From sequence record NZ_CP023526.1: 64,000 nucleotides of DNA, one strand, 5' to 3'. Shown one piece after another: positions 22,755-22,831 of the stretch (position 1 is the first letter of the stretch; each line of letters starts with the position of its first letter). Made by a program: the position numbers and the translations under genes. The notes beneath the pieces were generated by a model that was given only the letters and a program-made list of their open reading frames with translations, was not told the origin of the DNA and ran no database searches. Origin of the DNA: a plasmid.

Positions 22755-22831
22755 CCGCCACTAGCTCAACAGGACAGAGCATCAGCCTTATACGCTGAGG
22801 GTACGGGGTTTGAATCCCCGGTGGCGGACCA
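22755..22831 (+). tRNA. tRNA-like gene with apparent UAU anticodon (tRNA-Ile, AUA-decoding), island-borne
   Basis: 77-nt cloverleaf CCGCCAC-TA-GCTC-AACAGGACA-GAGC-A-TCAGC-CTTATAC-GCTGA-GGGTA-CGGGG-TTTGAAT-CCCCG-GTGGCGG-A-CCA. Acceptor stem is fully paired, anticodon stem is perfect, GG is present in the D-loop, and the T-loop reads TTTGAAT (C56 replaced by T). Confidence 0.55.

Follow-up and report, generated by a model that had tools for sequence, protein, structure and literature searches.

A solitary tRNA gene with a UAU anticodon on a prophage-type arginine tRNA body in accessory DNA of the Cedecea neteri group

The 64,000-nucleotide (nt) stretch of sequence record NZ_CP023526.1 analysed here, hereafter the window, carries a solitary transfer RNA (tRNA) gene with the anticodon UAU at 22755–22831 on the plus strand. 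An earlier note drawn up from the letters of the window had described a well-folded 77-nt cloverleaf at this place, and ARAGORN, Rfam, the minimum-energy fold and the family alignment agreed with that description and with a complete gene of 77 nt. ARAGORN called a tRNA-Ile(tat) at exactly these positions, and the match to Rfam RF00005 covered the full length without non-canonical pairs at 61.1 bits (E = 9e-11), in between the 73.8 and 59.3 bits of the window's two other tRNAs. ARAGORN, whose outcome the earlier note had left as a check, thus came out on the side of a tRNA, and the Rfam score was well above the gathering score of 29 bits. The cloverleaf was also the minimum-energy fold of the 77-mer (−32.5 kcal/mol, z = −3.2), with one of 200 shuffled sequences folding as well.

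The architecture of RF00005 was present throughout, with a 7-bp acceptor stem (CCGCCAC/GTGGCGG), a 4-bp D stem, a 5-bp anticodon stem, a 7-nt anticodon loop and a 5-bp T stem, and the gene keeps U8, A14, G18, G19, U33, a purine at position 37, T54, T55 and A58 in addition to A20, A59 and the discriminator base A73. The anticodon loop CTTATAC (22787–22793) contains the anticodon TAT at 22789–22791 on the plus strand, in which A35 (22790) stands in place of the C35 of the UCU and UCG members of the family described below; the view that a UAU anticodon is atypical for Enterobacteriaceae was upheld. The T-loop TTTGAAT (22809–22815) has T instead of C at position 56 (U56, 22811, plus strand), as had been noticed from its TTT in place of TTC. 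Position 56 pairs with G19 at the tRNA elbow, and a further departure at A15 (22769, plus strand) sets an A opposite A48 in the 15–48 tertiary pair. U56 and A15 affect core tertiary contacts, and the two changes would be compatible alike with a weakened but usable tRNA and with early decay. None of the marks of a tRNA pseudogene, namely truncation, broken helices or a sub-threshold score, was found in the gene.

The surroundings of the gene are poor in recognisable sequence. Between 20571 and 26724 only two small open reading frames (ORFs) had family matches, which bears out the gene-poor character ascribed to the segment, whereas its description as AT-rich held for 17–21 kb (36–41% GC) more than for the 2-kb windows around the tRNA (43–49% GC). 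A relaxed Rfam search of 20.6–27.4 kb returned no further RNA and no tRNA fragments. The tRNA lies neither in a tRNA array nor between Q and lysis or stx genes, and tblastn with the lambdoid Q, RusA, DUF968, holin, lysozyme and Rz proteins of two Escherichia coli prophages detected no remnant in the whole window. A holin-like ORF at 26724–27284 was considered as a remnant of a lambdoid late region and rejected, as it belongs to another family (Phage_holin_8/phrog_198), lies 4 kb off and is on the other strand; it is followed by a DUF1883 ORF and a Tle1-like lipase of the type VI secretion system.

A distant relative, contig L187, whose RcsA is 58% identical, keeps the order of a ToxR-like regulator, RcsA and an RcnB-like gene. 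Similarity to L187 is lost at about 22144 of the window, and L187 is without the tRNA. Because this syntenic relative has no such gene, the tRNA is part of an insertion in the Cedecea neteri lineage and lies about 600 nt within its breakpoint. This substantiates the proposal that the gene resides in horizontally acquired DNA. A place so close to the end of the L187 synteny, near the island edge, would also suit an attB function of the tRNA gene, which had been suggested to mark an old integration site. The conserved flanks of L187 without a tRNA indicate instead that the gene arrived as part of the inserted DNA; its 3′-terminal 25 nt recur nowhere else in the 64-kb window at up to three mismatches, no integrase was found among the window ORFs scanned, and the closest relatives of the gene are cargo tRNAs of phages rather than core genes. 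A role of the tRNA gene as an attachment site is on these grounds barely credible, and the suggestion was dropped.

The ancestry of the gene was traced by searches at several levels of sensitivity. Megablast of the tRNA region and of the 6 kb around it against E. coli genomes, plasmids and phages gave no match, an exact scan with the 77-mer had no match among species-representative genomes, and a scan of such genomes with the RcsA protein returned no relatives. A sensitive blastn search with the tRNA alone matched about 1000 E. coli genomes across the full 77 nt at identities of up to 87%, in genes annotated as tRNA-Arg. In lambdoid prophages these relatives immediately follow an ileZ-type tRNA (CAT), with the Q antiterminator on one side and the lysis genes on the other; some are found on plasmids. 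The acceptor stem, D arm, anticodon stem and T stem are common to the UAU tRNA and the prophage tRNA-Arg, which has TCT where the Cedecea gene has TAT. Identity amounted to 87–88% (67–68 of 77 positions) with the UCU members and to 78% with the UCG member of the Stx2-converting phage 86, whose acceptor stem reads CCGCCAT/ATGGCGG in contrast to the CCGCCAC/GTGGCGG of the UAU tRNA and other members. Within the common 77-nt body, the D-loop has 9 nt and includes A20, the anticodon stem is TCAGC/GCTGA, the T stem is shared and CCA is encoded; the Cedecea gene differs in UAU, C38, U56 and A15, in having no array, and in its chromosomal setting without a recognisable prophage. Unrelated UAU tRNAs from viral and metagenome contigs were identical to the Cedecea gene at 57 or fewer of the 77 positions.

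The array of phage 86 consists of an ileZ-type gene, the 9-nt spacer TATCACATA, the same tRNA body with TCG, and then a second tRNA-Arg with TCT. Directly 5′ of the Cedecea gene, TCACATA (22748–22754, plus strand) equals the last 7 nt of the spacer TATCACATA, and homology ends there; the chance probability of a 7-nt spacer match at a fixed position is about 6e-5. The spacer match, taken with the 87% identity of the body, shows the gene to have been excised from a phage tRNA array. A relic of ileZ further upstream was also considered and was rejected, with an alignment score of 20 against a shuffle mean of 18.5. The arginine tRNA beside ileZ is presumably argN of phage 933W, where the order is Q antiterminator, ileZ-argN-argO and stx/lysis genes. 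With high confidence, the sequence comparison indicates that the UAU tRNA gene descends from the lambdoid-phage arginine tRNA adjoining ileZ. The gene keeps A20 and U36 and has A at position 35, and is best regarded as a descendant of the arginine family that is not a functional arginine member of it. The likeness to phage ileZ-type tRNAs proposed in the earlier note therefore held for the phage connection and not for ileZ itself: ileZ- and ileX-type tRNA-Ile2 share with the UAU tRNA the nominal codon AUA and the neighbouring place in phage arrays, but they have a CAU anticodon with lysidine and an isoleucine-type body, and the ileZ-type genes (CAT) are only 65% identical to the UAU tRNA, as against 87% for the arginine body.

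The direction of the anticodon change was read from the members of this family. IMG/VR was scanned for the body with positions 33 and 35 left free. This gave at least 120 loci that represent 30 distinct sequences, and these 30, among the matches listed, had the anticodon TCT in 23 cases and TTT in seven, with no TAT. A TAT-specific scan of the body in IMG/VR found none, the anticodon arm alone had zero matches there, and a metagenome scan for UAU on this body yielded a single copy, on a Cedecea contig. The closest IMG/VR relatives among the matches listed all carried TCT (67–68 of 77 positions), and since the closest sequences are all TCT, UAU is derived from UCU by a C35-to-A transversion. 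This change apparently arose once, in the Cedecea neteri lineage. The UAU tRNA is otherwise a mix of states seen elsewhere in the family, with four that are unique against the 30 distinct sequences sampled (A15, A35, C38 and U56): T15 is present in 28 of the 30, and all 30 have C56 as well as A38, a listed isoleucine determinant, where the Cedecea gene has C38 (22793, plus strand). Across all the loci collected, C56 was likewise found in 119 of 126 distinct tRNAs with a parsable T arm, and U56 only in two Cedecea variants and one prophage tRNA-Thr. No UAU derivative of the prophage arginine body was found outside Cedecea in the collections scanned, and a literature search found no paper on such a derivative. 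tRNA genes in phage-derived DNA and anticodon shifts are known; the UAU form of this body in an enterobacterial species group appears to be a new variant.

The same locus was recovered from further Cedecea sequences. The host is Cedecea neteri: RcsA, encoded 2.2 kb upstream of the tRNA, has the same sequence as ATF95354.1 and WP_061277036.1 of this species. The locus was present in contigs of eight other public data sets (SRR5872854, GCA_900177785.1, SRR5165555, JGI 3300066812, 3300066759, 3300027111 and 3300006946, and ENA ERZ27247750), of which one was 100% identical to the window and the others 95–96% in the flanks, the latter including the assembly of Cedecea sp. NFIX57. All recovered Cedecea copies had TAT, C38, U56 and A73, with 0–1 substitutions in the tRNA. 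A sequencing or assembly error hiding a CAT anticodon was ruled out by the recurrence of TAT in the eight other data sets, and the CAT that the earlier note had named as a refuting outcome did not appear. Among the related contigs recovered, these copies show the UAU tRNA to be fixed in the Cedecea neteri group.

The identity elements of the gene were compared with published sets. The bacterial arginine set comprises A20, C35, U or G at 36 and A or G at 73, with A20 described as the main determinant for the E. coli arginyl-tRNA synthetase (ArgRS). The Cedecea gene has lost C35, so that a poor ArgRS substrate would be expected, though A20 and A73 are kept. If ArgRS still charged the tRNA via A20, and via A59 too, arginine or a mixture of arginine and isoleucine would enter at AUA codons as a low-level mistranslation, deliberate or tolerated. 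All three bases that speak for such charging, A20, A59 and an A73 that belongs to the arginine set, are present in the Cedecea copy, and McClain and Foss reportedly found in 1988 that A20 and A59 gave arginine identity to a suppressor tRNA without C35. Nonetheless, a listed arginine determinant is gone, and the replacement of isoleucine by arginine is non-conservative and likely harmful, which makes a fixed and expressed gene of this kind unlikely; mischarging is thus an improbable explanation.

The published bacterial isoleucine set consists of A73, C4-G69, U12-A23, G16, U20, U21, C29-G41, a modified C or a G at 34, A35, U36, N6-threonylcarbamoyladenosine (t6A) at 37 and A38. The gene possesses A73, C4-G69, U12-A23, A35, U36 and A37, and all of these except A35 were inherited from the arginine body and so are not evidence of adaptation. 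Instead of G16, U20, U21, C29-G41, A38 and G34 or lysidine-34 it has C16, A20, A21, A29-U41, C38 and U34, the wobble base of the gene being a plain U, and the A38-to-C change would lead away from isoleucine identity. Even on the genuine E. coli tRNA-Ile2 body, U34 in place of lysidine gave a relative kcat/Km of about 1.1% with the E. coli isoleucyl-tRNA synthetase (IleRS), about 100-fold worse than the lysidine-containing anticodon LAU, and on E. coli ribosomes UAU binds AUG as well as AUA, with no discrimination. The efficient use of UAU in Mycoplasma mobile needed an IleRS with Arg at the W905-equivalent position as well as a discriminating ribosome, and Trp at this position has been reported to be conserved in tilS-bearing species. 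Enterobacteriaceae decode AUA via TilS and the lysidine-modified tRNA-Ile2 (CAU), and a Trp-type IleRS is expected in them; neither ileS nor tilS lies within the 64-kb window. The idea of a specialised isoleucine tRNA found no backing, in view of the absence of G16, U20, U21, C29-G41 and A38, the retention of A20 and the poor handling of UAU by the E. coli IleRS.

Natural tRNAs with this anticodon offer a further comparison. The tRNA-Ile(UAU) of Mycoplasma mobile, Bifidobacterium and Neorickettsia and the tilS-suppressor tRNA-Ile1 of Bacillus subtilis resemble the Cedecea gene in combining UAU with A37, an anticodon loop that would pair with AUA without lysidine. They differ from it in their isoleucine-type bodies and in an IleRS adapted to U34, which has Arg or Lys at the W905-equivalent position or is of the eukaryote type, and the ribosome of M. 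mobile also rejects AUG; in the Cedecea case, by contrast, an arginine-type body is placed in a host expected to have TilS and a Trp-type IleRS.

The other variant of the body at position 35 (C35 to U) is the UUU form, designated 'tRNA-Lys' in the E. coli arrays Ile-Lys-Thr-Gly. It is widespread and stands in intact arrays, with A38 and C56 retained and C at position 33, unlike the UAU form, which is solitary and confined to Cedecea; a single UUU sequence made up 75 of the 120 IMG/VR loci among the matches listed. The presence of UUU on the same body implies that the body tolerates anticodon switching, and the anticodons UCG, UCU, UUU and, with the present gene, UAU are all in circulation on a single prophage tRNA body. 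The anticodon loop of the prophage 'tRNA-Lys(ttt)' (L004 3001–3077; 75 IMG/VR loci listed) is CCTTTAA, with C33 for the near-universal U33, and this C33 could relate to an escape from nucleases that target tRNA-Lys.

For the UAU tRNA, a phage-style counter-defence or decoy function was weighed, in which the changes at positions 35 and 38 evade or soak up an anticodon nuclease that targets tRNA-Arg. Anticodon-loop mutations of phage tRNAs have been proposed as a means to evade PrrC, VapC and colicin D/E5-type nucleases, and the present family is phage-borne with unusual loop variants, such as the C33 of its UUU form. An arginine tRNA that no longer reads arginine codons could not, however, replace a cleaved tRNA-Arg; moreover, no prophage or defence system adjoins the tRNA, and the change is unique to one chromosomal lineage, which leaves this function highly improbable.

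The reading that we favour, if only modestly, is that the UAU tRNA is a relic, intact in structure but marginal in function, with weak decoding or none, which coincides with the degenerating tRNA that the earlier note had offered as an alternative and which is here taken as the most likely reading. The gene was acquired horizontally from a lambdoid-phage array, was cut out with only 7 nt of upstream phage spacer, and now stands alone in accessory DNA of Cedecea neteri-group chromosomes, beside about 4 kb in which no gene can be recognised and a fragment of a group II intron. One C-to-A exchange at position 35 turned UCU, which reads the arginine codons AGA and AGG, into UAU. The sequence data show this origin and direction of change, the fixation in the species group and the intact secondary structure. 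From the identity sets, we infer that the loss of C35 removes the ArgRS anticodon determinant and that A35-U36-A37 together with A73, C4-G69 and U12-A23 give only partial isoleucine identity. With the transcription context of the phage late operon lost and the two core tertiary positions U56 and A15 altered, the gene would yield at best small amounts of a tRNA weakly charged with isoleucine, which would pair with AUA and, by wobble, with AUG. A relic is preferred because of the poor fit to IleRS, the lost array and promoter context, the two changes in the tertiary core, the one-off occurrence and the mobile-element debris around the gene, and a dedicated AUA decoder is not expected because Enterobacteriaceae have the lysidine-modified tRNA-Ile2 for AUA.

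A number of observations weigh against a relic. All 21 pairs of its helices are Watson–Crick, and CCA is encoded in the gene. The four unique changes are all in loops and none in stems, for which (35/77)^4 = 0.04 if they were random, and the sole polymorphism among the Cedecea copies, C31 or U31, pairs with G39 in either state. The joint change at positions 35 and 38 fits reported functional alloacceptor shifts, for which covarying sites have been reported at 37–39 and 72/73. AUA is used at 20–47 per 1000 codons in the adjacent AT-rich genes as compared with 13 per 1000 across the window ORFs, which also confirms the statement that neighbouring AT-rich genes use this codon, as in TCT ATA TAT at 18094–18102 of the calpain-like ORF. 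In addition, the related contig L180 is about 95% identical overall and diverges by 5.0% in 20.6–25.8 kb, and the tRNA with 41 nt upstream is unchanged in it. As a group, these observations leave a working tRNA plausible.

The same observations would be accommodated by a functional AUA decoder recruited naturally from arginine to isoleucine, which would have its own extended −10 promoter, carry t6A37, be charged by IleRS and help to express AT-rich acquired genes. The intact cloverleaf with its CCA, the fixation with 0–1 pair-preserving changes in every Cedecea neteri-group contig found, the restriction of unique changes to loops, including position 38 beside the anticodon, the match of A73, C4-G69, U12-A23, A35, U36 and A37 to the isoleucine set, and the AUA content of the neighbouring genes are all in its favour. 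Since the same body with UUU is widespread in prophages, anticodon switching on it has spread at least once. The anticodon change amounts to an alloacceptor shift, also termed tRNA gene recruitment or remolding, and such shifts have been reported to be rare in Enterobacteriaceae. Saks et al. reportedly found in 1998 that a mutation at position 35, which gave UGU, allowed the E. coli tRNA-Arg(UCU) to serve as tRNA-Thr.

A scan for two-hexamer promoters and terminators found no site adjacent to the tRNA. Read by eye, TGGTATTGT (22740–22748, plus strand) is an extended −10-like sequence (TGn + TATTGT) that ends 6 nt before the 5′ end of the tRNA and is invariant in all Cedecea copies; this conserved element is a possible promoter element and counts for a working gene. 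The run of perfect identity between the window and L180 spans 124 nt (22714–22837, plus strand) and covers the tRNA with 41 nt on its 5′ side and 6 nt on its 3′ side. Among such runs in the 17-kb alignment it ranks 15th in length, and no other of the top 15 falls within 20.6–25.8 kb; zero differences also occur in 12.7% of the 77-nt windows of this alignment, a test that is underpowered at 5% divergence. The conservation of the tRNA is not clearly above background, although the loop-only unique changes and the pair-preserving polymorphism hint at structural constraint, at a divergence too small to decide.

Weighed together, an AUA decoder is unlikely, though it merits serious consideration. 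Charging would suffer from a UAU anticodon that the E. coli-type IleRS accepts about 100-fold less well than LAU even on the true tRNA-Ile2 body, and from a body that lacks G16, U20, U21, C29-G41 and A38; reading of AUG by UAU on E. coli ribosomes would cause Met-to-Ile errors. U56 and A15 strike core tertiary pairs, conservation is not significantly above background, the event is single and lineage-specific, and Enterobacteriaceae already read AUA by TilS and tRNA-Ile2. It is unlikely as well that the phage tRNA-Arg(UCU) body, after one anticodon substitution and a tuning of the loop by C38, is expressed and isoleucylated as a lysidine-independent AUA reader beside the TilS system. If this were true, AUA-rich acquired genes would be translated better, with some misreading of AUG as the price. 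A working tRNA would add to the few documented instances from Enterobacteriaceae in which a single anticodon mutation moved a tRNA to another amino-acid family, and would be an instance of AUA decoding without lysidine in a TilS-bearing lineage; both would bear on the evolution of tRNA gene families and codon assignments and on the expression of acquired AT-rich genes. If the gene is the relic favoured here, annotation based on the anticodon gives 'tRNA-Ile' though the body is of the arginine type, and island-borne tRNAs would need a check of ancestry and identity elements before they are read as an adaptation of codon supply.

A second trace of a phage tRNA array lies elsewhere in the window. 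A tRNA-Thr(tgt) and a tRNA-Gly(tcc) gene, 4 nt apart at 1885–2039 on the plus strand, match the final pair of the array Ile(cat)-'Lys'(ttt)-Thr-Gly of an E. coli C8 prophage, whose 'Lys' gene shares its body with the UAU tRNA. In comparison with the C8 array, the Thr gene of the window is identical at 76 of 76 positions and the Gly gene has four differences; the ORFs just downstream are without a Pfam match. This pair may be a second stranded fragment of a lambdoid-type array, 20 kb from the UAU tRNA.

Several features were observed on the downstream side of the UAU tRNA. In the NFIX57-like metagenome contigs L148 (9275), L184 (9678) and L186 (6632), synteny with the window is lost at the same point, 23008 of the window, which is 177 nt past the tRNA, and these contigs end about 120–140 nt further. 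The break in the NFIX57-like lineage suggests a repeat or the insertion of an insertion sequence (IS), and L180–L183 stay colinear. About 850 nt downstream of the tRNA, a 226-nt fragment of a group II intron reverse transcriptase/maturase (23676–23901, minus-strand match) is 82–83% identical to genes on E. coli and Salmonella plasmids; it is isolated, and Rfam detected no intron RNA domains nearby. A repeat of about 110 nt occurs at 23962–24070 and 57500–57614 and again in L187 at 15772–15885 (both window copies being 70–74% identical to that of L187), and could represent a small dispersed repeat.

On the upstream side, the block at 17740–20571 has 33–37% GC. Its genes encode a cysteine protease of the calpain family (Peptidase_C2, E = 6e-35), a ToxR/CadC-like winged-helix regulator with 47 AUA per 1000 codons at 19138–19590, and RcsA. 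The RcsA of the window passes the NCBIfam cut-off for RcsA, yet it has 27 AUA per 1000 codons. The calpain-like gene is 393 amino acids long as called in the NFIX57-like lineage, compared with 344 in the window.

Other parts of the window contain further genes of note. The Kup potassium transporter at 31162–33045 (plus strand) is 99% identical to that of Cedecea sp. NFIX57 and about 75% identical to those of other Enterobacterales; the nearest Kup proteins outside Cedecea are from Serratia, Rahnella plasmids and Enterobacter, and the window Kup is likely a second, acquired copy. An ORF at 33917–34549 (minus strand) combines a HigB-like toxin domain with an HTH_3 domain in a single frame. The cluster at 35821–39589 (minus strand), which is situated in accessory DNA and encodes a guanine deaminase, QueF (preQ0 reductase), a Vut_1/YhhQ-like transporter and a helix-turn-helix regulator, looks like a salvage module for 7-deazaguanine, the queuosine precursor. 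An ORF at 44925–46289 (plus strand) contains an OspG-type effector kinase domain (E = 7e-13).

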